A stretch of 12,980 bases of DNA from Bdellovibrionales bacterium. Lineage in GTDB: Bacteria > Bdellovibrionota > Bdellovibrionia > Bdellovibrionales > UBA840. A program made the translations under genes and the position numbers. Below the pieces are notes generated by a model that saw nothing but the letters and a program-made list of their open reading frames with translations, searched no databases and had not been told where the DNA came from. Positions 1-12,980 of this stretch are shown in pieces. Numbering within the stretch: the first letter of the stretch is position 1; every line of letters starts with the position of its first letter. The stretch covers positions 1 to 12,980 of the forward strand of contig JBBKWS010000183.1 in NCBI GenBank assembly GCA_037969075.1, written 5' to 3'.

Positions 1-239
1 GTTTGAAAGTGCTCGCGACTTTTAGAGTTAATAAATTTAACGATGATACTGCCGTTTTCTTTGATCTTATATATATCTACGACTAAACCTTCTTTAATCT
101 GCACCGTGCGTATAACTGATAGAACTTTTGAGTTTTGCGGCGCTAACACGTTTTTAACCTTGTCCCTAAGGCTGCTACTGAATCCCAGAGTTAAGGAAAA
201 TGAAAATAAAATGGCAGAAACGATATATAGTGATTTCAC
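1..239 (-). CDS. Partial hypothetical protein (5' end; runs off the left edge) with an N-terminal hydrophobic anchor or signal
   Basis: Not in the ORF track; translated by hand. GTG at 239, 18 nt after the pgeF stop, opens a frame to the window edge: VKSLYIVSAILFSFSLTLGFSSSLRDKVKNVLAPQNSKVLSVIRTVQIKEGLVVDIYKIKENGSIIVKFINSKSREHFQ. Co-oriented with the operon. No clear SD. Confidence 0.7.
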   Translation of the reverse strand, partial: MKSLYIVSAILFSFSLTLGFSSSLRDKVKNVLAPQNSKVLSVIRTVQIKEGLVVDIYKIKENGSIIVKFINSKSREHFQ

Positions 240-257
240 ATACTATGTATCGGCTAC

Positions 258-920
258 TTATCCCCTTGTGTTTACGATAAAATGATATAGACGTTGGTCC
301 TGCTCTTTTCCCTCACGGTAAGAGTAATGATCAAGAGAGCTAAAGGTATCTACATCTAAATAATGGCAATTTTTAGGGTCTATGCCGTAACCTTCAAGTT
401 GGTGCTTTGTAATTGATTTTAGATCTAAGAACAGCTTTCCTTTGCTCTCAATATGGTAGGTGGTAGGTGATACGGGCTTTAATAGGTCCAGATCATTTTT
501 ACTAAACTCATAGTTTAGCGTGTGAATAAAGGGACCAACCCATGCTTGAATTTTAGATATGTCTGAATAAGGGTAAGCTATTTTTAAACTTTTTTTAATA
601 ATTTCAGATTGCAGTCCGCGCCAGCCAGCATGAATTCCTAAAACCGTATCGGTAGTGGGACAAAAAAAGAACAATGGTACGCAATCAGCTGTTTTAATAG
701 TTAATGCTAAGTTTCTATCAAACGTAAAATGGGCATCAGCCTTTTGCTCACCACCTGGTTTAGCGGCTAGGCATACATCGCTGTGGTATTGATTTAATGT
801 GCAAAACTGCAAGGACGGATGCTCTTTTTTTATATGATCAAGAGGGGCTGATTTTTTTCCAAAGAAAACAGTTAGGGAATCTTTTTGGTATACGTGCCCA
901 TGGGAGGTTTCAGTAAACAT
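258..920 (-). CDS. pgeF: YfiH/PgeF family protein (peptidoglycan editing factor / purine nucleoside phosphorylase, laccase-domain)
   Basis: Family motifs LNQYHS, TADCVP, HAGWRG, WVGP and YSYRE. Lies directly after rluD, the established rluD-yfiH pairing. Confidence 0.93.
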   Translation of the reverse strand: MFTETSHGHVYQKDSLTVFFGKKSAPLDHIKKEHPSLQFCTLNQYHSDVCLAAKPGGEQKADAHFTFDRNLALTIKTADCVPLFFFCPTTDTVLGIHAGWRGLQSEIIKKSLKIAYPYSDISKIQAWVGPFIHTLNYEFSKNDLDLLKPVSPTTYHIESKGKLFLDLKSITKHQLEGYGIDPKNCHYLDVDTFSSLDHYSYREGKEQDQRLYHFIVNTRG

Positions 921-922
921 AA

Positions 923-1894
923 TTAAACGTAACTGATAAAATCACAAAAAGTAAGTATATCCTTTAAACTTTCTGGAACAGGAGATTTAAATAATAGTGA
1001 TTCTTTAGTGATTGGGTGTATAAAACCTAGTTCTGCAGCGTGCAGTGCAAACCTACTAAGCTCAGAAACCTTTGCTCTCAATGCGGTGGATTGCAATGAT
1101 TTAACTTTGGTTGGGCTACAATAAAACCAATCAGCTAAGACAGGGTGTCCCATATCATTAAGATGTACTCGTATTTGGTGGGTACGCCCAGTTTCTAATT
1201 GCAATGAGAGAAGTGACAATTCTTTTTTGTAAGTAGAGAGCACTTTGTAATTAGTGACGGCAATTTTACCCTGAGCAACGCGGGATGAAAATTTTTTACG
1301 TTGGTTAGGAGCTCTTCCAATGAAGGTTTCAATTCGTCCTTGTGTTTGCTTTGGAGATCCAAAACATATCGCCCAGTATTTTCGGTGAACAGTCTTAGCT
1401 GCAAACTGTTTAGATAATGCATGGTGAGTAATATCATCTTTTGCCACCACTAGAAGGCCGCTTGTATCTTTGTCAATACGGTGGACAATACCAGGCCTGT
1501 CTTCGTTGAAGCCGACAGCTAGTTTTTTACAGTGAAATAATAGTGCGTTCACTAAAGTATCATCTTGGTGACCCGCGGCAGGGTGTACAACAAGACCGCT
1601 AGGTTTATTGATAACGATAAGATGATCGTCTTCAAAAACTATATCAAGGGGAATATCTTTAGCGACTAGTGATGATGGTGTTGTTTCTGGTATAATGAAT
1701 TCTATATTATCTTTTGCGGTAATTTTATAAGAGCTTTTAGTAGCAGTAAGACCATTGATTGCAACAAGCCCCTTTGCGATAAGCTCTTGGGCTCTGGTTC
1801 TAGAGCTGATGCTTTCAGTTTTTGAGAGTGCAACATCTAAGCGCTGATCAATATTAGTTGTATCAATTTCTAAAATTTTCTTAATGTTAGTCAC
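923..1894 (-). CDS. rluD: RluA-family 23S rRNA pseudouridine synthase with N-terminal S4 domain (RluD-type)
   Basis: S4 domain (QRLDVAL..SRTRAQELI), NKPSGLVVHP, catalytic HRIDKDTSG, GRTHQIRVH and LHAAELGF motifs. GTG start overlaps the upstream gene by 8 nt. Confidence 0.93.
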   Translation of the reverse strand: MTNIKKILEIDTTNIDQRLDVALSKTESISSRTRAQELIAKGLVAINGLTATKSSYKITAKDNIEFIIPETTPSSLVAKDIPLDIVFEDDHLIVINKPSGLVVHPAAGHQDDTLVNALLFHCKKLAVGFNEDRPGIVHRIDKDTSGLLVVAKDDITHHALSKQFAAKTVHRKYWAICFGSPKQTQGRIETFIGRAPNQRKKFSSRVAQGKIAVTNYKVLSTYKKELSLLSLQLETGRTHQIRVHLNDMGHPVLADWFYCSPTKVKSLQSTALRAKVSELSRFALHAAELGFIHPITKESLLFKSPVPESLKDILTFCDFISYV

Positions 1895-2555
1895 GAACGT
1901 CTTTAAGAATTCTCATGTAAGAGTCAGTAACTTTTTGTGAATCCAGTCCAAGGGTTTCAGCCATCTGCTTTACATAACCACGCACAAACACGCTGGCTGG
2001 AAGTTTGTTAAAGTCATTATTTTCAATTGCATTGAAGTGGTGACGGCCAATTTTTAAATGCTCGCAAAGAGTTTCTAGGTTTATGTTTTTATACACTCTT
2101 ACTTTTTTTAAATAAGTTCCATCGAACATTTCTTGTTGCAGTAATTCGTGCTCAACCATTGGATCAATGTTGTATTGCCCAAACCTAGTTATTCCAACGC
2201 CTTGCTTTGCTAACTCTTTTTTATCTTCAGATGTTAGCGGTGGAGCCTTCACTTGTGCTGTAACTTTCGCGGCAGCTACACTTGGAGCTTTATCATGAAT
2301 AACAGTAAAGTTTCCTGATTGTAGTTTTAAGTCATATTCTCTACGTTTAGCGTGGTGACTTAAAGTTTGATAAGCTTCATCTAATAAGTGATTTAGTTGA
2401 ACAGCTTCGTCTCTACTAAAAATAGTGTATATGGCGGGGCTATCAGGGGCATAAATGCCTTTGGCTCGCAAGTAAGCTTGCTGTACCTCATCTGCACTTG
2501 CATTTGTAGAGATCTCTAAGAGCTCATAATAAGTTTGTTCTTTAAAGTCTGACAC
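1887..2555 (-). CDS. Soluble protein with an N-terminal J-domain-like fold (HPD replaced by APD) and a C-terminal RodZ-type (HTH_25/XRE) helix-turn-helix
   Basis: J-like segment TYYELLEISTNASADEVQQAY..IYAPD..LDEAYQTLSHHAKRREYD. HTH segment GTYLKKVR..INLETLCEHLKI..AIENNDFNKLPASVFVRGYVKQMAETLGLD. Start reassigned to GTG at 2555, 4 nt after the ATPase stop, instead of the ORF-track start at 2615, which overlaps the upstream gene. Confidence 0.85.
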   Translation of the reverse strand: MSDFKEQTYYELLEISTNASADEVQQAYLRAKGIYAPDSPAIYTIFSRDEAVQLNHLLDEAYQTLSHHAKRREYDLKLQSGNFTVIHDKAPSVAAAKVTAQVKAPPLTSEDKKELAKQGVGITRFGQYNIDPMVEHELLQQEMFDGTYLKKVRVYKNINLETLCEHLKIGRHHFNAIENNDFNKLPASVFVRGYVKQMAETLGLDSQKVTDSYMRILKDVRD

Positions 2556-2559
2556 CTGA

Positions 2560-3522
2560 TTATAATACGGCGGTTTTAGCGGTAGAACCAACAAGATTTT
2601 TAGCAATTTTAGCAATTTGTTGGCTGACTGAAGATTGTGGATTTGCGATCATAACGGGTTGAGATTTTCTAAGAGACTGCCACACGGCATCATCATAGGA
2701 GATGGCTCCAAGATAAGTACACCATACACCGAAAAATTTATTACAAACACTAGCAATCCCATGCCCTACCTGTTCATCATGACTCATGCGAATCTGATTT
2801 AATACGACAGATAAATCCAATGACTGTAAATCATTCATAATATAGCGGCCTAGCACGGCATTTCGTTGATAAATATCTTTAACAATTTGATTTGGAGACT
2901 TCTCTTGAAACTGGTCACGGTGGGCTAGCAGTGAGTTTAGCTCATCTTGTGCCCCATGAGTGGTAATTGCATGCTGCAGTTTACGGTAGAAAAGTACTTT
3001 TAAAAATCTATAAGCATTTTCAATGCTAGTTGGTTCAGCAGACGCTACTAAGATTGAGTTATCAGCAGAGGTAAAAAAGTCTACGGTCGCCGCTGCCGTA
3101 CCCGCCCCAAGATCTAAAATTATGATGTCTGAGTTTAGAGTTTTAACACCTTTAATTAATTTTTGTACATCGGAGTCGCTTAGTTGCGTAATATTTAATG
3201 AATCAAAACAACCACTGATTAGCTTTAGGTTAATATATCTGGTGGGCTCTTCTAATTCTTTAAAATGTGTGATTTTGTCACTTAAGAAATCGCTTATCGT
3301 TGTGCGCACTGATTGCAAACCTAAGCATGTGTGTTGGTTTGAAGAGCCCAAGTCTAAATCCACCACAGTAACTTTTTTAAACCTGGATAAATAAATAGCT
3401 AGATTGGAAGTGAAAAAACTTTTTCCAATGCCACCTTTGCCGCCGCCGACAGCAATAATAGTAGGGGTGTTTGTAGAGTTATTATTTGTCATATTTGCTA
3501 TCGCCTCAATATTTTCAGACAT
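2560..3522 (-). CDS. MinD/ParA-family P-loop ATPase, FlhG/FleN-like paralog
   Basis: Deviant Walker A GGGKGGIGKS, DLDLGSSN (compare DADLGLAN), DLGAG and EPTSIENAY (compare EPTSITDAY). Start is ATG 3522 (overlaps tsaB by 8 nt) or ATG 3492. Confidence 0.9.
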   Translation of the reverse strand: MSENIEAIANMTNNNSTNTPTIIAVGGGKGGIGKSFFTSNLAIYLSRFKKVTVVDLDLGSSNQHTCLGLQSVRTTISDFLSDKITHFKELEEPTRYINLKLISGCFDSLNITQLSDSDVQKLIKGVKTLNSDIIILDLGAGTAAATVDFFTSADNSILVASAEPTSIENAYRFLKVLFYRKLQHAITTHGAQDELNSLLAHRDQFQEKSPNQIVKDIYQRNAVLGRYIMNDLQSLDLSVVLNQIRMSHDEQVGHGIASVCNKFFGVWCTYLGAISYDDAVWQSLRKSQPVMIANPQSSVSQQIAKIAKNLVGSTAKTAVL

Positions 3523-4213
3523 GGCGTTTAATTTCCCCTTTTACTAGCTTCTCTTCGGCAGCAGATAAGCGAATATAAAGGGGCTCTAACAACTTCCATT
3601 CTAAAGTCTTATTAAGTTTTAGATATACTAGACCCAATTCAGCCAGTGTTTCAGCTGTTGGATAATCGTCATATTGCTCACGCAATAAACTTTTGTTCAT
3701 AGAATCTGAGAAATCATCTTTTAATAAACCATAACCATCGCCAACAACAATATGAGGCGTGGTTATCATTTTCTCTAGTTGTTCCAATGACATAAGTTGT
3801 GGCGGCAAGGTTTCGGTAGCAAGACCATGTTCTACTTTAAACGTTGCACAGTAGACCTCTTGCCGTTGAGCATCTCTAATACTTAGCACGGGAAAATCTG
3901 TCTTTATTGGCTCAGCCATTAAGTGCAGGGAATCAACTGCGACAACGGGAATATTATTAGCGTAAGCAAATGCTTTTGCTGTGCTGACGCCAATGCGAAC
4001 ACCCGTAAAGCTACCTGGACCAATGTCACAAGCCACAAGAGAAATGTCTTTGGCGGTAAGTTTAACTGCAAGCAATCCCTCTTGAATACGCGGACCTAAT
4101 ATTTCGGCATGCGATTTATCGGCATGCCAAGAATTTTTATATAAGGTTTTCTTACCATCATGAAAACAAATACTTCCGTATGAGGTCGATGTAGTGATGG
4201 CAAGTATTAACAT
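3515..4213 (-). CDS. tsaB: tRNA threonylcarbamoyladenosine biosynthesis protein TsaB (YeaZ)
   Basis: MLILAITTST, HAE, GPGSFTGVRIG, DAQRQEVY and LEPLYIRLSAAE motifs. TAATG stop/start overlap with rseP. Confidence 0.95.
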   Translation of the reverse strand: MLILAITTSTSYGSICFHDGKKTLYKNSWHADKSHAEILGPRIQEGLLAVKLTAKDISLVACDIGPGSFTGVRIGVSTAKAFAYANNIPVVAVDSLHLMAEPIKTDFPVLSIRDAQRQEVYCATFKVEHGLATETLPPQLMSLEQLEKMITTPHIVVGDGYGLLKDDFSDSMNKSLLREQYDDYPTAETLAELGLVYLKLNKTLEWKLLEPLYIRLSAAEEKLVKGEIKRHV

Positions 4214-5883
4214 TAAGATCCTATAACTCTAGAGATATCGTTAAACATGGCGAATATCATTAGGAATAGAAGTAAGAAAAAGCCAATTTGCTGAGCGATG
4301 GCAACCTTATGTAAACTTACCGGCGCGCCTTTGATTGCCTCAATGGTAAACAAAACTAAGTGCCCGCCATCAAGAACAGGAATTGGCAGTAAGTTTATGA
4401 TAAAAAGATTTATAGAAATAATTGCCATAATCTTTAAAAAAGGAACTAAACCAACTTTAAAAGATTCGCTCGCGATTTGCCCAATCATAATAGGGCCACC
4501 GATTGATTTAGTGGAAACTCGGTTTTGAAAAAGCCTTAAGAATCCGACAACAGTAGATACAACCCAGTGGTTGGTTTCTTCAAGACCTACGATTAGTCCC
4601 TCAGAAATAGATTTTACAGGGAAAGCCTGTGTAGGCGGCGGCATCATAGTTAATATTGGCCCCACACCAATCTTTAATGATTCCTCTTTTTTGCCCGTCA
4701 TAGGGTTCTCTTGTGTAAGCATGGCGGGAGCAATTGCTATTTCTAAATCCTTGCCAGCACGTAAAATTTTAACATTGAGTGGTCCACTAGATTTAGAGTA
4801 AGCAGAAATATTTTTAGTCAAATCAGTCCAATGTACTAATGGCGTTCCGTTGATAGCTAAAAATTTATCACCAATCTGGAGCCCCGATTTATCAGCGGCT
4901 GAATCGGGACTGATAATGCCAACATATAGCTCTGGATTTTCAATTCCTACAGCCTCTAAGTTAGTTATAGACTCCACGCTTGGTAAAATAAACTCAAGCT
5001 CTTCGGGCGTCTCATTATCTGCCGAGGTTCTCTCTATTATAAGTTTTAAAGAGGCTACAGTATTCTCGGACACCATCTTTTCTAATTCATACCAGCGGCT
5101 AACGTCTTTGCCTTGAAATTTTATAATTCTATCGCCCGTTCTCAATCCACTCTTATAAGCCTGGCTATCAATATTACCGACGCCGATAGATGTTCCGTAT
5201 GTGATGACATCGATGCTTTCAATAGTTCTTATAGTTTCTTTCAGCGATAGTATATTGGGATTTTTAATGGTCTGTAGTTTTAAAGGAATTGAAATTTCAT
5301 TTTTATCTGCGTAGCTTTCAATTTTTAGTGTTACAGAATCGCTAGGTGACTTACTTAGTTCGTCTTTGTAATCGTCCCAATTAGCAATCAGGTTACCATT
5401 AACGGATAAAACTTTATCTCCGGGGCGCAAGCCAGACGTGAAAGCCTCGCTGTACGGTTGCACTTGCCCAATAATAGGTAAGGCCTTAAGGTCGCCAATT
5501 TTTGCGATTGCAAAAAATAGTACAAATGCAAAAAGGAGATTCATAAGAGGGCCGGCTAAAACCACGGCTATTCTTTGTCCAACAGGTTTATGCAAAAAAG
5601 AAACCTTACGGTCTTCTTCGCTGATCTCTTCAGTGGGATTTTCTCCGTACATTTTTACATAACCACCAAATGGTATCAGACTAAGGCAATATATGGTGTC
5701 GCCATGTTTAAACTGAATCAGTTTTTTTCCAAACCCTAGGCTGAAAACCTCAACCTTCACCCCGTAATATTTTGCTACTAAAAAATGCCCGAGCTCATGG
5801 ACAAAAATAAGTGCGCCCAACAAGATAATAAGTGGAATTAAAAAGCCAACCGATTGATGTAAAAAATTTTGTATCATTTCCAT
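4213..5883 (-). CDS. rseP: RIP metalloprotease RseP (site-2 protease, M50) with three PDZ domains
   Basis: HELGH zinc motif, FSLGFG, IPFGGYVKM, AGPLMN and NLLPIPVLDGGH. PDZ signatures SGLRPGDKV, SGLRTGDRI and SGLQIGDKF. Confidence 0.96.
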   Translation of the reverse strand: MEMIQNFLHQSVGFLIPLIILLGALIFVHELGHFLVAKYYGVKVEVFSLGFGKKLIQFKHGDTIYCLSLIPFGGYVKMYGENPTEEISEEDRKVSFLHKPVGQRIAVVLAGPLMNLLFAFVLFFAIAKIGDLKALPIIGQVQPYSEAFTSGLRPGDKVLSVNGNLIANWDDYKDELSKSPSDSVTLKIESYADKNEISIPLKLQTIKNPNILSLKETIRTIESIDVITYGTSIGVGNIDSQAYKSGLRTGDRIIKFQGKDVSRWYELEKMVSENTVASLKLIIERTSADNETPEELEFILPSVESITNLEAVGIENPELYVGIISPDSAADKSGLQIGDKFLAINGTPLVHWTDLTKNISAYSKSSGPLNVKILRAGKDLEIAIAPAMLTQENPMTGKKEESLKIGVGPILTMMPPPTQAFPVKSISEGLIVGLEETNHWVVSTVVGFLRLFQNRVSTKSIGGPIMIGQIASESFKVGLVPFLKIMAIISINLFIINLLPIPVLDGGHLVLFTIEAIKGAPVSLHKVAIAQQIGFFLLLFLMIFAMFNDISRVIGS

Positions 5884-5889
5884 GGATTG

Positions 5890-5918
5890 ATTTTAACAAT
5901 CAATAGCAATATTGGCTA
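5890..5918 (-). promoter_or_regulatory. Putative sigma70 promoter for rseP: -35 TAGCCA, 17-nt spacer, extended -10 TGtTAAAAT
   Basis: Minus strand reads TAGCCA(5918-5913)-atattgctattgattgt-TAAAAT(5895-5890)-caatcc-ATG. No SD before the ATG. Confidence 0.6.
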
Positions 5919-5949
5919 TGAAATACGGGGATTTAGACGAAAGTTCGCT

Positions 5950-6765
5950 TTATATAAACCAAGTTACATAACAATAGAAAACAGGAAATGAAAAGAGAAT
6001 GCTGTCTAAACGATCTAAATAACCGCCATGACCAGGCATGATACGTCCAGAGTCTTTCTTGCCAGCATTTCGTTTTAATACAGATTCAAACAGATCCCCA
6101 AATTGTGAAAATACCGAAGCAATAAGGCCAGCCAGCGTTAGGCCTAAGATATGGTCTTGTAGGCCTAATAACCAGCTAACACTAAAGGTTGTTACTAGTG
6201 CAGAGATGCAACCTGCTATCGAACCAAGTCTTGTCTTATTGGGTGATATCGTAGGTAAAAGTTTTATTTTACCAAATTTTCTTCCTATAAAATATGCCAT
6301 AACATCTGTAGCTATTACCGTAGCGATACATATAAAGAAAATTTCTAAACCTAGTGGATGCCAAAGAATAAGCTGGGCCGTAATGCCCGGTAAAATACCA
6401 ACATATATAAATCCCATCATGCAAGTTGCAATCAGAGATTGTTTGGCAAGGTTATCCTCATCTTTTCTAGCCATAAGCATGACTAGGGTAGATAAAAACA
6501 TTAAACCAAAAGCGATAAGAGCAGCAGAGACCTCAAATTGTTTGTTCGCAAAAGATAAAAATATAAGAAATGTAAATATAAAAAAAGAAGCTTTAAGTGT
6601 GCGTTTTGCAGAAGGAAAGCACAGCTTTATAAACTCATATTGAGCGCCTAGTGTTGCTAGTAAAGCGACAACGCCAAGACCATTTCTTTGCCATAACATG
6701 TATAAAGTAAAAACTAGAGCGGCAACGGCAACGGCAGATAGCATTCGAACTTTAGTTGAGCTCAT
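5950..6765 (-). CDS. cdsA: Phosphatidate cytidylyltransferase
   Basis: Multi-TM protein with TDVMAYFIGRKFG, PTISPNKT and GDLFESVLKRNAGKKDSGRIMPGHGGYLDRLDS. Start reassigned to ATG 6765 (MSSTKVRM), overlapping the end of uppS. Confidence 0.95.
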   Translation of the reverse strand: MSSTKVRMLSAVAVAALVFTLYMLWQRNGLGVVALLATLGAQYEFIKLCFPSAKRTLKASFFIFTFLIFLSFANKQFEVSAALIAFGLMFLSTLVMLMARKDEDNLAKQSLIATCMMGFIYVGILPGITAQLILWHPLGLEIFFICIATVIATDVMAYFIGRKFGKIKLLPTISPNKTRLGSIAGCISALVTTFSVSWLLGLQDHILGLTLAGLIASVFSQFGDLFESVLKRNAGKKDSGRIMPGHGGYLDRLDSILFSFPVFYCYVTWFI

Positions 6766-7501
6766 GTTTTTCGCCTTGTGTGGATTCGGTTGGAGTCTGG
6801 GATGGTGTTTTACCAAATCGTCTTTCTCTTCTTGCGTACTCAGCGAGGGCCTGTGTTAAATCACTGGCGACAAAGTCGGGCCAAGATTTTTCTATAATTA
6901 TTATCTCAGCATAGGCGGCCTGCCATAGTAAGAAATTCGATAGGCGATATTCACCACTCGTACGAATAATTAAGTCAGGGTCTGGCATATCAGCTGTTTG
7001 TAAATAGTTGCTAACTAGAGTTTCATCGATAGTATCAAGAGGCTTCGAACCATTTTTAAAATCTATGACTATCTGTCTAATTGCTTGCGTGATTTCTTGT
7101 CTGGATCCGTAGCTTAGTGCCAGTGTCAGAACCATGCCACTATTGCCCTTTGTTGCATCAACCGCTTTAGCTAGAATATCTTGTGCATCAGCAGGCAAGT
7201 AAGAGATATCGCCGATAGACTGCAGGCGGATATTTTGTTTATTTAGTTCACGGGTTTCTTTTTTTAAAAACTTAACAAGAAGCCGCATAAGCAAGCTAAC
7301 CTCTTCTTTGGGACGCATCCAATTTTCCATGCTAAAGGCATACAATGTTAAGTAGGGAATTTTTAATTTTGCAGAAGTGGTTACGACTTCACGAACTCTT
7401 CCAACGCCTTTAATGTGCCCAAACAGGCGACGCTTGCCTAAGCTTTGCGCCCAGCGCCCGTTACCATCCATAATAATTGCTAGATGATTAGGTAGAGCCA
7501 T
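6752..7501 (-). CDS. uppS: Undecaprenyl diphosphate synthase (cis-isoprenyl transferase)
   Basis: HLAIIMDGNGRWA, LYAFSMENW, LSYGSRQEI and DPDLIIRTSGEYRLSNFLLWQAAYAE. TAATG overlap with frr. Confidence 0.97.
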   Translation of the reverse strand: MALPNHLAIIMDGNGRWAQSLGKRRLFGHIKGVGRVREVVTTSAKLKIPYLTLYAFSMENWMRPKEEVSLLMRLLVKFLKKETRELNKQNIRLQSIGDISYLPADAQDILAKAVDATKGNSGMVLTLALSYGSRQEITQAIRQIVIDFKNGSKPLDTIDETLVSNYLQTADMPDPDLIIRTSGEYRLSNFLLWQAAYAEIIIIEKSWPDFVASDLTQALAEYARRERRFGKTPSQTPTESTQGEKHELN

Positions 7502-8058
7502 TATACAGTCATAATCTCTTTTTCTTTGTCCTCACCGACCTTATCCACTTTGGATATAAAATCATCGGTAACCTTTTGGATAGATTCAGATAATTTTTTA
7601 AACTCATCCTCAGACAATGTTTTTTCTTTTAAAGATTTTTTTAGCTCTTCATTTGCATCTCGGCGTTTCATGCGAATGGAAACTCTGGCTTCTTCGATAA
7701 TTTTCTTTGCGTGCTTTACTAGTTCTTTACGTCTTTCTTCGGTTAACTCAGGAAGACGCATGCGAATTACTTTCCCATCATTCATCGGCGCCATGCCTAG
7801 ATTACTTTTAACAATAGCAGCTTCAATTTCTTTTAATACAGACGACTCCCACGGGGAGATTAAAAAAGACCTGGCGTCGGGGCAACTTATAGCTGCCACC
7901 TGACTAATCGGTGATTGATTTCCATAATAATCAACACGAATAGCATCTAGCATTTGTACATTCGCGCGACCTGTTCTGATTTTAGACAATTCGTTTGATA
8001 ATGCTTCTAGAGATTTTTGCATTTCAGCTTCAACAGTTTTTTGAACAGCCACTGACAT
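7501..8058 (-). CDS. frr: Ribosome recycling factor (185 aa)
   Basis: IRTGRAN, VDYYG, NDGKVIR..PELTEERRKELVK and KEKEIMTV. Start reassigned to ATG 8058, with SD AAGGAG at 8065-8070. Confidence 0.97.
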   Translation of the reverse strand: MSVAVQKTVEAEMQKSLEALSNELSKIRTGRANVQMLDAIRVDYYGNQSPISQVAAISCPDARSFLISPWESSVLKEIEAAIVKSNLGMAPMNDGKVIRMRLPELTEERRKELVKHAKKIIEEARVSIRMKRRDANEELKKSLKEKTLSEDEFKKLSESIQKVTDDFISKVDKVGEDKEKEIMTV

Positions 8059-8059
8059 A

Positions 8060-8779
8060 TCAGTCTCCTTTAATGATTGTACCGATCTTTTCACCTTTAA
8101 CAGCTTTTAGGATATTTCCTTCGCCATTTAAGTTGAACGTTAAAATAGGAAGGTTGTTTTCCATACATAGAGTTATGGCGGTACTATCCATAACCTTTAA
8201 TTGTTTTTGGATGGCCTCAAGGTGAGATAAAGTTTCAAATTTAATTGCGTCTTTGTGTTGCATTGGATCTTTATCATAAACGCCATCGACTTTGGTTGCC
8301 TTCATAATTACGTCAGCTCCAATTTCAATAGCCCTTAATGCTGCCGCCGTATCGGTAGTAAAAAATGGATTTCCTGTTCCGGCTCCAAAAATCACTACAC
8401 GGTTTTTCTCAAGATGGCGGATTGCACGCCTACGAATATATGGCTCAGCAATTTCTGACATATCAATAGCGCTCTGCACTCGTGTTTTTACATCTAGTTT
8501 TTCAAGAGCATCCTGAAGGGCTAAAGCATTTATACAAGTAGCCAGCATTCCCATGTAATCAGAGCTAGCGCGATCCATGCCTTGTGCAGATGCGGCAACA
8601 CCTCTAAAGATGTTACCCCCACCAATCACAATACCAATTTGCACGCCAGTTTCTAAGGCTTGAGCAACCTGCCGGGCGATACCTTGGATAGTCTCAGCGT
8701 CGATGCCATAGCCTTTGTCTCCAGCTAAAGCCTCGCCGCTCAATTTTAGCACTATGCGTTCATAGATGCGTTTCGCCAA
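8060..8779 (-). CDS. pyrH: UMP kinase
   Basis: [41 protein letters not shown] and KVMDSTA. TTG start with SD (TAA)GGAG adjoining the tsf stop. Confidence 0.97.
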
Positions 8780-8790
8780 GATGCAACTCC

Positions 8791-9444
8791 TTACTGTACG
8801 TTAGATGCAGCCGCTACTTCTGCAGCAAAATCAGAACTACGCTTCTCTAGACCTTCACCCAGTTCAAATCTAGAAAACCTACGAATTACAATGTTTTCGC
8901 CGATAGAAGCAATGGTAGTTTTTAGGTAATCACCAATAGTAACATCTGGATTTTTAACAAACTGTTGCTCAATAAGAACTTTTTCAGATAGCCACTTTTT
9001 AATTTGGCCTTCAATGATCTTTTCTAAAAACTCTGGTTTTTTACCCTCTTCAATGGCTTTTGCTTTCAATAAGCTGCGCTCTTTTTCAACTAAGCTTGGA
9101 TCAACTTCTTCTGCTTTTACACAAAGCGGAGAGGTTGCAGCAATGTGCATGGCGATGTCTTTACAGAACTCTTGAAATTTTTCATTACGAGCAACGAAAT
9201 CTGTTTCAGAGTTAATTTCAACAAGTACGCCAATTTTTCCGGCGCCATGAATGTATGAAGAAACCATTCCTTCGGCAGCTGCGCGTCCAGCTTTTTTCTC
9301 AGCCTTTGCGATGCCTTTGGTACGAAGCCATTCGATGGCCTTTTCAAAGTTACCATTTGTTTCGGCAAGTGCTTTTTTGCAATCCATAAAACCAGCACCA
9401 GTTTTATCTCTTAATTCTTTTACAACGTTTGCGTCGATAGACAT
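8791..9444 (-). CDS. tsf: Elongation factor Ts, short (217 aa) form
   Basis: [31 protein letters not shown] and [24 protein letters not shown] upstream. Confidence 0.97.
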
Positions 9445-9488
9445 AGGAACTCCTAAAAAACTAAATGTTAAAAGTGTAAATGGGCTTT

Positions 9489-9518
9489 AAAAAAACAAGA
9501 GAGATTAACTCTCTTGTT
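9489..9518 (-). terminator. Intrinsic terminator/attenuator overlapping the rpsB stop codon
   Basis: Minus strand AACAAGAGAG-TTAAT-CTCTCTTGTT-TTTTT: a 10-bp perfect stem (9518-9509 / 9503-9494) followed by a U run. The TAA stop is in the loop. Confidence 0.7.
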
Positions 9519-10413
9519 CTTCTGTATCAGCAGTAGGCTCGTCAGTAATACCTTGTTCTACTTCAATGCTGATTTCAACATCTTCAGCAGTTCCGGCAGC
9601 CACTAGGCGACGAGTAGCTGTTGCCACTTTTGTCTTAATAACTTCAACTTTTTTAGCTTCTGGCTTTTTAGGGCTAGAGTCTTTTGGTGTATCAGAACCT
9701 TTGTCAGTTTGAGAACGTAATTTTTGCTCGTGAACTTTAGCGCCTTCAAGATAAGCTTCAGCCATCAAGTTAGAGAAAAGTTGGATCGAACGAATCGCAT
9801 CGTCATTTCCTGGAATTGGAAAATCGATCATAGACGGATCTGAATTTGTATCAGCAATTCCAACTACAGGAATTCCCAAAGTCTTGGCTTCAGCTACGGC
9901 AATTTTTTCTTTAATTAAATCTACAACAAACATCACGCTCGGCTGACCGCGAAGATCTTTGATACCCTCTAAGTAATCCACAAGTCGTGTGAATTCTTTA
10001 TCCATTTTAGATTGTTCTTTTTTAGAAAAAAGAGTCCATTCGCCTTCGGCTTTCATGCGCTCTAATTTTTTAAGACGATCAATAGATGCTTTGATAGTTT
10101 GAAAGTTAGTTAACATTCCACCAAGCCAACGCTTAGTTACGAAATATTGACCACACTTTTTTGCAGCTTCTTGAACCGGCTCAACGGCTTGTTGTTTTGT
10201 ACCAACAAAAATCATTTTTCCGCCTTGAGCAGCAACATCTCTTACTGCTTCAACTGCGCGCTGTGCGCCGGCTACTGATTTTTGAAGATCAATGATATGA
10301 ATCCCACCGCGCTCACCAAAAACGAAATTCTTCATCTTTGGATTCCAACGATGTATCTGATGTCCAAAGTGAACACCCGCATCTAACATTTCTTTCATAG
10401 TAATATTTGGCAT
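9505..10413 (-). CDS. rpsB: 30S ribosomal protein S2 (302 aa) with a long C-terminal extension
   Basis: [27 protein letters not shown] and [10 protein letters not shown]. Start reassigned to ATG 10413, with SD GGAGGA at 10417-10422. Confidence 0.98.
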
Positions 10414-10423
10414 ATTTCCTCCA

Positions 10424-10484
10424 TTCTGGTTAGGCCTCGTCTTCGACATTGGATACACACCAGTGGAGTGCCGAAGACTGTGAA
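10424..10484 (-). promoter_or_regulatory. S2 autoregulatory mRNA leader (t44/rpsB leader-like)
   Basis: Minus strand CACA-GTCTTCGGCA-loop-TGTCGAAGAC-GAGGCCTAACCAG. A 10-bp stem with one G-U (10478-10469 / 10448-10439). Loop CTGGT is complementary to downstream ACCAG. GAGGCCTAACC resembles the t44 3' motif. Lies immediately 5' of rpsB. Confidence 0.75.
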
Positions 10485-10650
10485 TTACTAAAACACTAAT
10501 AAATTAGTAGGGGATAAGTAACATAGGGTGGTTTAAAATGGCAGCCCGAAGTGTTGGGAGAAGGGTTTAGTGCGTGGCGTCAATAAGGGAGTGTCCGGCT
10601 CCGCTTCTGGGTCCCAGTGCGCAAAAGGTCTTTTAAACACATTTTTTATA

Positions 10651-11232
10651 TTATCGGTGATACCCAAGTGTGACGGGCTTGGCGCCAGTCACATATTCGT
10701 ACTGCCTCAAGAAGTCTTTATATTCCTCAGTCTTTGCGTACTCAGTTAGATGCGCGCTAGCAAGCTGGCGCTGCTCTTCGGTAAGAGGCTGAAACATGAT
10801 GCTCTCTTGGATGATAAATTCAAAGTCCAAAGGGGTTCCTATACCTCTATATAATGCCAGTTCATTTTGAATGTCCTGTAGTTCTTCGGGGCTAAGGGAT
10901 TTTGGGTCTCTTCGCTCCCAAGCCTTTGCCCACAAATGAACTCCAAATGTTCTAACAGCTTTATAGTACAACTCTGAACTATCATTACCGCCGGAAATAT
11001 TCATACAATTATAAAGTCTTCTGTCAGCGAACTTTCTGTCCTCGAACGTGCCACCCACCCAATAGGAAATGTCATGTTCAACGCAGCAGTGTCTCCAGCT
11101 TCCATCGATGGAAGCGGTGCAACCATCTGTCTTAACAGGTCTTATGATTTGTGGTGGCGCGGCCAGCGTTGAGGTACTAAAAAATCCAATAAATAAAAAA
11201 CATAATGTTTTAAGTAAAGTGCGTCTATCCAT
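10651..11232 (-). CDS. Exported phospholipase A2-like protein (His-Asp motif) with a twin-arginine signal peptide
   Basis: MDRRTLLK, a hydrophobic core and TLA-A cleavage site. TDGC...WRHCCVEHDISY...RKFADRRLYNCM matches the sPLA2-type CCxxHDxxY plus downstream AD..L..C pattern. GGGGGA SD upstream. Confidence 0.75.
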   Translation of the reverse strand: MDRRTLLKTLCFLFIGFFSTSTLAAPPQIIRPVKTDGCTASIDGSWRHCCVEHDISYWVGGTFEDRKFADRRLYNCMNISGGNDSSELYYKAVRTFGVHLWAKAWERRDPKSLSPEELQDIQNELALYRGIGTPLDFEFIIQESIMFQPLTEEQRQLASAHLTEYAKTEEYKDFLRQYEYVTGAKPVTLGYHR

Positions 11233-11384
11233 GCGAACTTCCCCCCGAGACCAATAATGATATCTATAAAGATAGATTGTTCCACTAAATGATGTAGAGG
11301 AGGCTGAGCGTTAACTAGGAGGTTTAAGGTGGGAAGGATTTGGTAATAGATGAGAGAAAAATAAAACTTAAATCTTCTTAAATT

Positions 11385-11412
11385 AACAAAGGGACCATTT
11401 GGTCCCTTTGTT
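11385..11412. terminator. Strong, potentially bidirectional intrinsic terminator
   Basis: AACAAAGGGACC-ATTT-GGTCCCTTTGTT is a perfect inverted repeat 11 nt after the stop of the 387-aa gene, U-rich on both exits. Confidence 0.85.
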
Positions 11413-11423
11413 GTTGATCGAAA

Positions 11424-12587
11424 TTATTTTTGATTTTTGATCGGTTGTTTTTTAGGTTTAACAACTCTTTTGGCTTTGATCTGAGCCAATTGCACTTTCA
11501 TTTTTTCTAAGAGAGCCTTCACTTTAACTGTGGCCTGCTTCCCTTTAGCTTGTACACGCGAAGCCTTCTTCTTTTGTAAGGCTATCGCAGCTTTTGCGGG
11601 TGCTGCAGCTTTTACTTTCGCGGTTGCTTGTGACATTCGAACCTGCTTCTTTTCTTTTTTAGGAAGCACTTTTTTTGCGGCACCGTATGCACCATCACAC
11701 CAGTATGACCCGTCATCATAACCATCGTCGTAGCCATCATCATACCCATCATAGTATCCATAAAAATAACCATCTTCGTATCCGTCATCGTAACCATCAT
11801 CATAAGCGTCATCGATTTCGTCTTCTAGATAATTAATTTCATCTTCTAGATCATCAACGTAATCTTCTAAATCATCAATATAGTCATAGGCATCGTCTAA
11901 ATCATCTTCGCAGGCATTGTAATCAGAGACTAAGCCGTTATAATTAATTACTAAAGTATCATAAAGACGGCCAAGACGTGTGTAGTCTACGAGTAGTTCT
12001 TGATACTCTTCATCACTTACGCCCACAAATGTTTCAAGAGGTGTGGAGCATAAGTCTACGCCTAGTAGTGAAATAATAGGAGTTAGACGTCGTACTGTCA
12101 TTTGCCCGCTATCAAGCGAGTTAATGCCATTTAACAGGTTGGCGTCAGGGTTGAATGTCCAAGATAAGTCGATCGTATGACAATCAACTAGCAAGGCATC
12201 CATTGTTCCAACAGCTCGATTGCCAGCATTTACTTGCGGCTCATTAAAACGCATGTAAGCGTTGGCTTCATATATCGTTAGGTTGGCCTCATATCCTGTC
12301 ATTGTTCCAAGAGCAACAAACCAAACTTTTTCTGTGCCGGCAGGATTATAAGTGTACCAATATATTCCTACATTATTGGTTCCATCAGAGGATTTAAAAT
12401 ATTCTATGTTAAAGCCTTGCCCAGAGAGAGTGCGCCCCTGACTGTCGACTTCTGGCTTGTAAAATGAGCCAGCAAATCCATAGCCAGCGTTGTCTACACT
12501 TGCAGGTAAGGGGTTTTGTGCATATAGCTGTGTGCTAATAAGTAACGTAAATGCCGTGCCTAATGCACGCGTATATAAACTTCTCAA
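11424..12587 (-). CDS. Secreted hypothetical protein: signal peptide, beta-rich domain, acidic coiled coil, (YDDG)x8, Lys/Ala-rich tail
   Basis: TTG start with AGGAGG SD at 12592-12597. Sec-type signal ending LYA-Q. 387 codons open, followed by its own terminator. Function unknown. Confidence 0.85.
   Translation of the reverse strand: MRSLYTRALGTAFTLLISTQLYAQNPLPASVDNAGYGFAGSFYKPEVDSQGRTLSGQGFNIEYFKSSDGTNNVGIYWYTYNPAGTEKVWFVALGTMTGYEANLTIYEANAYMRFNEPQVNAGNRAVGTMDALLVDCHTIDLSWTFNPDANLLNGINSLDSGQMTVRRLTPIISLLGVDLCSTPLETFVGVSDEEYQELLVDYTRLGRLYDTLVINYNGLVSDYNACEDDLDDAYDYIDDLEDYVDDLEDEINYLEDEIDDAYDDGYDDGYEDGYFYGYYDGYDDGYDDGYDDGSYWCDGAYGAAKKVLPKKEKKQVRMSQATAKVKAAAPAKAAIALQKKKASRVQAKGKQATVKVKALLEKMKVQLAQIKAKRVVKPKKQPIKNQK
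11709..11804 (-). repeat. Eight degenerate 12-bp coding repeats: YDDG YDDG YEDG YFYG YYDG YDDG YDDG YDDG
   Basis: Seen in both the translation and the DNA (TAYGAYGAYGGN). Third positions vary between copies. Confidence 0.9.
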
Positions 12588-12714
12588 GTTTCCTCCTAAA
12601 TTAATTCCCAGTAGGTCGAACTAACATCTGCTCGATAAAATGCAATAGGCTGGAGTGAGATAGAGTTTTTTATAGGGTCAAAGTGAAATTAGGTAATGAG
12701 TACAGCTGGTAACA

Positions 12715-12732
12715 CCTTGCCGGAGCGCAAGG
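12715..12732 (-). terminator. GC hairpin after the upstream gene (weak terminator or RNA stabiliser)
   Basis: CCTTGC-gctccg-GCAAGG, a 6-bp stem about 26 nt after the stop at 12759. Only a poor U-tract follows (TGTT). Confidence 0.35.
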
Positions 12733-12758
12733 CGATCATATACGTAGAATGAATTCAA

Positions 12759-12980
12759 TTAGTCTTTTATTACCGCGGGTTGTTCAAATGCAAAGACCTC
12801 TTCTATGGACTGCAGGCACTTTTTAGCTTGTAGAAACTTTCCATCTTGCCCCACTTGATCGCTCCACTGGCCCGAGGCCATGAATGCATTGCCAAGATTA
12901 CCAAGGGTCTGATTGCTATTTAACTCAATCGTTATTTTTGCATCAGAGAATGGGACGACTTTAATTTTTTCAAAAACTAA
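12759..12980 (-). CDS. Partial hypothetical protein (3' end; enters from the right edge)
   Basis: Not in the ORF track; translated by hand. 73 open codons from the edge to TAA at 12761-12759: LVFEKIKVVPFSDAKITIELNSNQTLGNLGNAFMASGQWSDQVGQDGKFLQAKKCLQSIEEVFAFEQPAVIKD. Confidence 0.65.
   Translation of the reverse strand, partial: LVFEKIKVVPFSDAKITIELNSNQTLGNLGNAFMASGQWSDQVGQDGKFLQAKKCLQSIEEVFAFEQPAVIKD

Follow-up and report, generated by a model that had tools for sequence, protein, structure and literature searches.

For a J-domain protein to stimulate Hsp70, an HPD motif is needed. Among ParA/MinD-family ATPases, both FlhG and MinD carry a C-terminal membrane tail, one residue (D152 of MinD, D171 of FlhG) governs ATPase activation, and FleN inhibits FleQ by direct binding (PMC7226244). 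The helix-turn-helix (HTH) domain of E. coli RodZ contacts MreB through F60 and Y64 and is stated not to bind DNA (PMC6946637). Relatives of such proteins meet in two adjacent genes of a 12,980-nucleotide (nt) stretch from a Bdellovibrionales bacterium (GCA_037969075.1, contig JBBKWS010000183.1, positions 1-12,980), the whole of which is called the window below. A deviant-Walker-A ATPase resembling FlhG/FleN is followed, after 4 nt, by a two-domain protein, the partner, with a J-like domain and a RodZ-type HTH; this arrangement, proposed earlier in a sequence-only reading, is borne out by the open reading frames (ORFs), the motifs and Pfam. The pair is real and widespread and, so far as the searched literature goes, uncharacterised; it is not an FlhG, a RodZ or a canonical co-chaperone. 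That it is a dedicated ATPase/adaptor pair, undescribed and distinct from flagellar FlhG, as the same reading had supposed, is well supported by adjacency, natural fusions, a tree, the joint decay of partner residue Y43 with the ATPase, and the negative literature search. The favoured account of its action, put at a probability of about 0.4, is an ATP switch that would gate a soluble, RodZ-like MreB adaptor by way of a repurposed J domain. The pair and its parts are as follows.

2560..3522, minus strand: FlhG/FleN-like ATPase, 320 amino acids (aa); Pfam ParA/CbiA/AAA_31, motifs, structure model
2815..2991, minus strand: helical insert of the ATPase, residues 178-236; alignment and structure model
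1887..2555, minus strand: soluble J-like/HTH partner, 222 aa, GTG start; Pfam, database call
2331..2534, minus strand: J-like domain of the partner, residues 8-75; Pfam DnaJ PF00226, E 5.7e-10
1890..2129, minus strand: RodZ-type HTH of the partner, residues 143-222; Pfam HTH_25 at residues 148-209, E 7.5e-17

The preferred start of the partner is the GTG at 2555, 4 nt past the ATPase stop; with a stop ending at 1887 it gives 222 aa, in agreement with the database call (P0001). A TTG at 2615 in the ORF list was rejected as a start; it would overlap the ATPase by 56 nt. The nearest named relatives of the pair are Bdellovibrionales proteins, and the pairing itself goes far beyond chance. The phylum set comprises 151 genomes; strong ATPase loci number 122, spread over 121 of the genomes, and at 118 of these loci the partner lies directly 3' of the ATPase on the same strand. 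The four exceptions are one locus cut by a contig break (G047) and three sister-subfamily loci whose ATPase has an N-terminal GYF domain. Of 504 metagenome loci 80 were kept: a hidden Markov model finds the partner at 72, its start is cut by the contig end at 2 more, another 4 stop at the ATPase or just past it, and in 2 (L088, L098) no partner is seen. The two genes are thus by no means rarely adjacent, and the genes flanking them vary among loci. At 50% identity, approximately 1,196 cluster representatives reach E<=1e-30 against the partner profile. Atlas clusters that share the same domain sets bear Bdellovibrionota, Myxococcota, Thermodesulfobacteriota, Acidobacteriota and Aminicenantota labels, which serve as leads only; the range outside the phylum rests on these labels, source names, metagenome loci and one paper. 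On plasmids, no copy of the ATPase was found at E<=1e-15, and the partner gave partial HTH matches only.

The GYF_2-bearing sister ATPases (L143:1886-3109, L158:2655-3908, L159:2058-3341; G013, G021) keep the insert, have no J-HTH partner and form their own tree branch; they follow a Wzc-like gene in L143 and L158 and precede a polysaccharide-export-like gene in L143. At another locus (L103:3003-3862) the partner appears as two overlapping ORFs, a J part and an HTH part.

Fusion and loss bear on how the two proteins are related. Twenty-five natural ATPase-J-HTH fusions of 490-551 aa were found, some of them named Myxococcales or Myxococcota. Of these (P0194-P0218), 24 were aligned, none of which has the Walker A lysine, and the catalytic Asp is mostly missing, so that by their sequences the fused proteins are probable pseudo-ATPases. 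The free-standing ATPase keeps its catalytic residues, and when one member is lost it is the partner that survives: 8 genomes retain a partner without the ATPase (one such partner is HTH-only), in 6 of which tsaB now lies directly upstream at the same locus, and loss is therefore one-sided. Beside an ATPase, partner residue Y43 is kept in 44 of 44 partners from the phylum and 70 of 71 aligned ones from metagenomes (114/115); it is kept in 2 of 7 partners without an ATPase and in 0 of the 25 fusions. This pattern points to the J loop as a likely contact with the active ATPase. The aromatic residues of the HTH are retained in each of the 8 partners that lack an ATPase and in each of the 25 fusions, which points to the HTH as the likely output. 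By such comparisons the two proteins very probably work as one unit, and the J loop of the partner is probably where it meets the ATPase.

The ATPase has the Walker A sequence GGGKGGIGKS, with K29, K34, D55, D57, N62 and D137 intact; K29, K34, D55, D57 and D137 are invariant in 63 of 63 aligned homologues. It shows the signature Lys, Walker A', Walker B and MinD-type fold of the ParA/MinD superfamily. Its top sequence match in the PDB is FleN (5j1j, E 3.7e-21), and in a model with a mean predicted local distance difference test (pLDDT) of 83.9 the closest structure is that of FleN in its complex with FleQ (Z 29.9, root-mean-square deviation (rmsd) 2.2 over 244 residues), with Z 26.5 to MinD; the NCBIfam minD score is 69 bits against a cut-off of 212.9. 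At the position of MinD D152/FlhG D171, all 63 close homologues have Asn, and family f2 has Lys. Between positions 177 and 237 lie 59 residues, as compared with 8 in all 19 FlhG/FleN proteins and 15 in MinD, and residues 171-236 give no Pfam match at E<=0.01. This insert measures 56-60 residues in 56 of 57 paired ATPases. The exception, the G130 ATPase (L152:1333-2106), has lost the whole insert and still precedes a partner; congeneric genomes have lost the ATPase outright, and G130 looks like an intermediate of gene decay.

The window ATPase gene follows tsaB, not flhF, and had been called an orphan. That holds for the window, in which no ORF reads as flhF or fliA. It does not hold for the genome, whose canonical flhA-flhF-flhG lies on another contig (C87), and the window ATPase is therefore a paralogue beside a real FlhG. 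The same genome also encodes ParA, Mrp and an ArsA-like protein; at G000:C180:1584-2880 (L119, L123) there are two adjacent P-loop ATPase matches, one confirmed as ArsA-family. In a quick, unrooted tree of 88 rows, 65 paired or fused ATPases fall on one side of a branch (Shimodaira-Hasegawa-like approximate likelihood ratio test, SH-aLRT, 98) and 19 FlhG/FleN proteins with MinD on the other (99). This tree was rebuilt without the insert columns and without the long-branch ParA and Mrp, since with these included the long-branch rows had attracted the fused proteins. The ATPase thus does not nest within FlhG and groups apart from FlhG and MinD. The distribution of the pair is also decoupled from flhF. 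In genome family f13 the pair is present in 29 of 29 genomes and an FlhF match at E<=1e-25 in none, 14 candidates having been scored per genome, so that a diverged FlhF could be missed; in family f14, FlhF is present in 10 of 10, with ATPase scores only at the FlhG level and no strong match to either pair gene.

The partner model (pLDDT 88.3) consists of a J fold, a disordered linker (88-103) and the RodZ-type HTH. The J fold is intact (Pfam DnaJ over cut-off, Foldseek and VIA structure matches), and its HPD is replaced by APD, inside a family loop that bears A41 and Y43. No transmembrane segment was found in the partner, whose hydropathy peaks at 0.47, versus 2.32 for the genome's own RodZ and 1.94 for E. 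coli RodZ; a peak above 1.6 occurs in only 2 of 222 homologues. A canonical membrane RodZ (contig C27) and mreB are encoded elsewhere in the same genome. In this RodZ (L034:1483-2649, G000:C27) an 8-residue Pro/Thr-rich unit is repeated over a long periplasmic stretch.

Structurally, the partner HTH comes nearest to the RodZ that was co-crystallised with MreB (2WUS; Z 11.5, rmsd 2.0 over 79 residues), and partner residues F190 and Y194 align with F60 and Y64 of E. coli RodZ (b2516). Position 190 is F/Y in 104 of 104 aligned ATPase-adjacent partners, and position 194 in 97 of 104. The HTH had been thought to couple the ATPase to MreB or DNA; the structural match and these residues favour MreB over DNA, as a prediction.

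Taken together, a mechanism may be proposed in three steps. First, the ATPase would dimerise on ATP, as do FleN, FlhG and MinD. Second, the HPD-less J domain would dock on the ATPase through the A41-x-Y43 loop, probably at or near the family insert, and so couple to the nucleotide state. Third, the HTH would bind MreB through F190/Y194 as RodZ does, minus the membrane anchor. The ATPase cycle would then control the time or place at which a soluble RodZ mimic binds MreB, with a possible output in the tuning of wall elongation or MreB-dependent gliding, and the pair would be an accessory modulator rather than an essential division or shape factor.

Several points weigh against this account. Binding within the pair and binding of the HTH to MreB are predictions. 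The ATPase-less partners, two of which keep Y43, represent about four lineages, and the fusions come from few lineages; the co-decay counts are therefore not independent and amount to a strong hint, not a statistic. All 26 phylum and all 30 metagenome ATPases of the tree set keep K29, K34 and D57, and the metagenome loci were chosen with a Walker A pattern, so that conservation there is partly selected. The second HTH match, S. aureus YmfM (3FYM, titled putative DNA-binding protein), has Z 10.6 and is tied with RodZ within 1 Z unit. The Y64 equivalent is non-aromatic in 7 of the 104 partners, the arginine that RodZ has two residues after Y64 varies across the partner family, and the F/Y..Y/F pair may be structural because it is general to HTH_25. 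The reported binding of MxDnaK1 and MxDnaK2 by the Myxococcus xanthus protein MXAN_3349 (see below) is unexplained by an ATP switch acting on MreB. Lastly, in the transposon-sequencing (Tn-seq) data for B. bacteriovorus 109J, EP01_RS11240 has fitness (W) values of 2.03/1.19/1.29/1.12 and EP01_RS11245 of 2.06/2.21/1.94/1.68, on a noisy scale, from a host-independent strain, in which a neutral control lies near 1 and defects below 0.1 (PMC6561027). These genes, between tsaB and a pseudouridylate synthase, are by gene order the likely orthologues of the pair, and they appear to lack a defect. This argues against the suggested morphogenesis module where an essential role is meant.

A rather unlikely alternative is a transcriptional switch, in which the XRE-like HTH of the partner would bind DNA and the ATPase would be an antiactivator in the manner of FleN. 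The nearest ATPase structure is indeed the FleN that is bound to FleQ, which FleN inhibits directly (PMC7226244), the partner is soluble and matches HTH_19, and in 8 genomes it persists without the ATPase, as would befit an effector. However, the HTH is nearer to RodZ and YmfM (Z 11.5 and 10.6) than to any toxin-antitoxin or repressor-type HTH (best Z 7.7), and the RodZ HTH of E. coli is reported not to bind DNA (PMC6946637). Scans of the region for promoters and terminators were at background, with 15 consensus promoters found versus 17.5 expected.

True positioning in the MinD/ParA sense, with cargo moved along the membrane or nucleoid and the partner acting as stimulator and cargo link, was raised in the sequence-only reading and is unlikely. 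The signature lysine is intact, the two-gene layout is like that of other ParA/MinD systems, and the ATPase aligns an Asn with MinD N45, a functional residue of MinD. B. bacteriovorus is stated to lack MinC and MinD, and only bd1326, bd2331 and bd3906 are listed as ParA-like (Milner et al., PMC7186360). On the other side, neither a membrane nor a nucleoid anchor is evident in the ATPase, which also counts against a core role. The chain stops 5 residues past the last core helix of the model, with no C-terminal membrane-targeting tail found, and among 120 close ATPases 114 lack any F/W in the final 14 residues, whereas 16 of 20 FlhG/MinD proteins have at least one. The Soj-type "PRN" arginine of the genome's own ParA, a DNA-binding residue, aligns to Y276; a second ParA nucleoid-binding site aligned unreliably because of the insert, with an invariant R245 nearby. 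The missing catalytic lysine of the fusions makes a gradient-forming cycle hard to square with the family, and the likely B. bacteriovorus orthologues show no Tn-seq defect. No minC- or minE-like ORF lies beside the ATPase among the window ORFs and surveyed flanks.

Close ATPases end in a conserved hydrophobic tetrapeptide (window 2563-2574; RAVI in 56, RAVV in 26 and KAVV in 10 of 120) that is not kept in distant members and is possibly a PDZ-binding or protease tag.

It is quite improbable that the partner is a specialised DnaK co-chaperone, with a J domain that would bring Hsp70 to a client bound by the HTH or by the ATPase. An intact J fold would suit such a role, D38 is often kept, and H occurs at position 36 in some members. 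In M. xanthus, MXAN_3349 (WP_011553383.1), a 579-aa J and HTH protein whose J sequence has the same family loop motif, co-precipitated with MxDnaK1 and MxDnaK2, as confirmed by split-luciferase (PMC11019930). By domain layout and J-loop motif MXAN_3349 is identified as an orthologue of the partner, and by gene order MXAN_3348 as its ATPase gene. DnaK co-immunoprecipitation also captures substrates, however (PMC11019930). Furthermore, of 300 J segments parsed from free-standing partners (195 from the database, 39 and 66 from loci, overlap possible) none has HPD, and the conserved loop residue tracks the ATPase rather than DnaK.

A second flagellar FlhG with an incidental neighbour, as the FlhG labels on many homologues and the FleN/FlhG nearest structures might suggest, is largely refuted by the canonical flhG after flhF elsewhere in the genome, the separate tree branch, the f13 and f14 distributions and the partner orthologue in M. 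xanthus, which is not known to have flagella.

On the minus strand of the window the pair lies in a housekeeping block: rpsB, tsf, pyrH, frr, uppS, cdsA, rseP, tsaB, the pair, rluD and pgeF. These names were taken from translations, and tsaB, rluD and pgeF were confirmed separately. The neighbours overlap the pair, as had been noticed, by 8 nt each.

3515..4213, minus strand: tsaB, upstream neighbour of the ATPase, 8-nt overlap; context only
923..1894, minus strand: rluD-type pseudouridine synthase, downstream of the partner, 8-nt overlap

The rluD gene is a common yet inconstant neighbour across loci, and tsaB, rluD, radical SAM and scpB were ruled out as parts of the module because flanks vary. 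Also as noticed earlier, no flhF, fliA, minC, minE or parB occurs among the 21 window ORFs of at least 80 aa (7 proteins scanned with Pfam, the rest judged from translations). Elsewhere in the window, a 387-aa predicted secreted protein (11424-12587, minus strand) has an acidic Y-D-D-G repeat stretch, a basic C-terminal tail and, in Pfam, a sub-threshold DUF2457 match only. A 193-aa predicted secreted protein (10651-11232, minus strand) has no Pfam match over cut-off and a C-C-x-x-H-D motif reminiscent of phospholipase A2-like proteins.

No study of the ATPase-partner pair was found in the literature searched, which consisted mostly of listings and the starts of abstracts, with subscription journals little covered. 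In its accessible parts, PMC11019930 treats MXAN_3349 only as one of 15 J-domain proteins and leaves the adjacent ATPase unmentioned; MXAN_3348 had 0 matches in its supplements and none in the main texts searched. The accessible portions of PMC9481161 held nothing on the locus, nor were there matches in the supplements, as far as accessible, of PMC11046052 and PMC11025332 (Bdellovibrio polar proximity labelling; full tables possibly missed). Many ATPase homologues are labelled "flagellar biosynthesis protein FlhG" in IMG and partners "CbpA", labels that are flagged here as a common misannotation. At locus L107 the gene order is ATPase, partner, RomX (E 9.6e-42 to 8ZNA), RluD, and romX is MXAN_3350 (bioRxiv 10.1101/2024.02.20.581209). 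RomX occurs at 5 of 80 metagenome loci and no clear RomX was found in the window's own genome (best E 0.005 over 43 residues), and the link to romX is therefore lineage-specific.

If the account is true, the ParA/MinD family would gain a new type of partner, J-like plus RodZ HTH, and perhaps MreB as a new output, and a J domain would have a role without HPD. As a broader and tentative proposal, the pair would be a new ParA/MinD-family class: its repurposed J domain would sense the nucleotide state of the ATPase, and its soluble RodZ mimic would pass this on to MreB. It would thus be an ATP-gated, cytoplasmic actin regulator in Bdellovibrionota, Myxococcota and other phyla, which in myxobacteria is encoded directly upstream of the polarity factor romX and which some lineages would have converted into a fused pseudo-ATPase scaffold. 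The pair is unstudied in two tractable models, M. xanthus (beside romX) and B. bacteriovorus 109J, in which mutants appear viable, and comparison singles out K34, Y43, F190/Y194 and the insert.

Among known systems, FleN of P. aeruginosa (5J1J, 8P53) and FlhG of Geobacillus (4RZ2) are like the ATPase in fold (Z 29.9 and 28.2) and share its deviant Walker A, switch motifs and EPT motif. Unlike them, the ATPase has a helical insert of about 50 residues, no membrane tail and Asn (Lys in f2) at the D171 position; it does not lie beside flhF, belongs to a separate clade and has its own partner gene. RodZ (T. maritima 2WUS, E. coli b2516) is like the partner in its five-helix HTH_25 domain and both MreB-contact aromatics. 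However, the partner HTH is C-terminal, after a J-like domain, there is no transmembrane or periplasmic part, and the canonical RodZ is encoded separately. J-domain co-chaperones share the J fold, whereas the partner family lacks HPD throughout. MinD-MinE, ParA-ParB, McdA-McdB and PomZ-PomXY are like the pair in joining an ATPase of this family to an adjacent, dedicated partner gene. In contrast to these two-component systems, the pair has no evident membrane or nucleoid anchor and has fused forms that are catalytically degenerate, and its partner, unlike the stimulators MinE, ParB, McdB and PomXY, matches the J and HTH_25 families.

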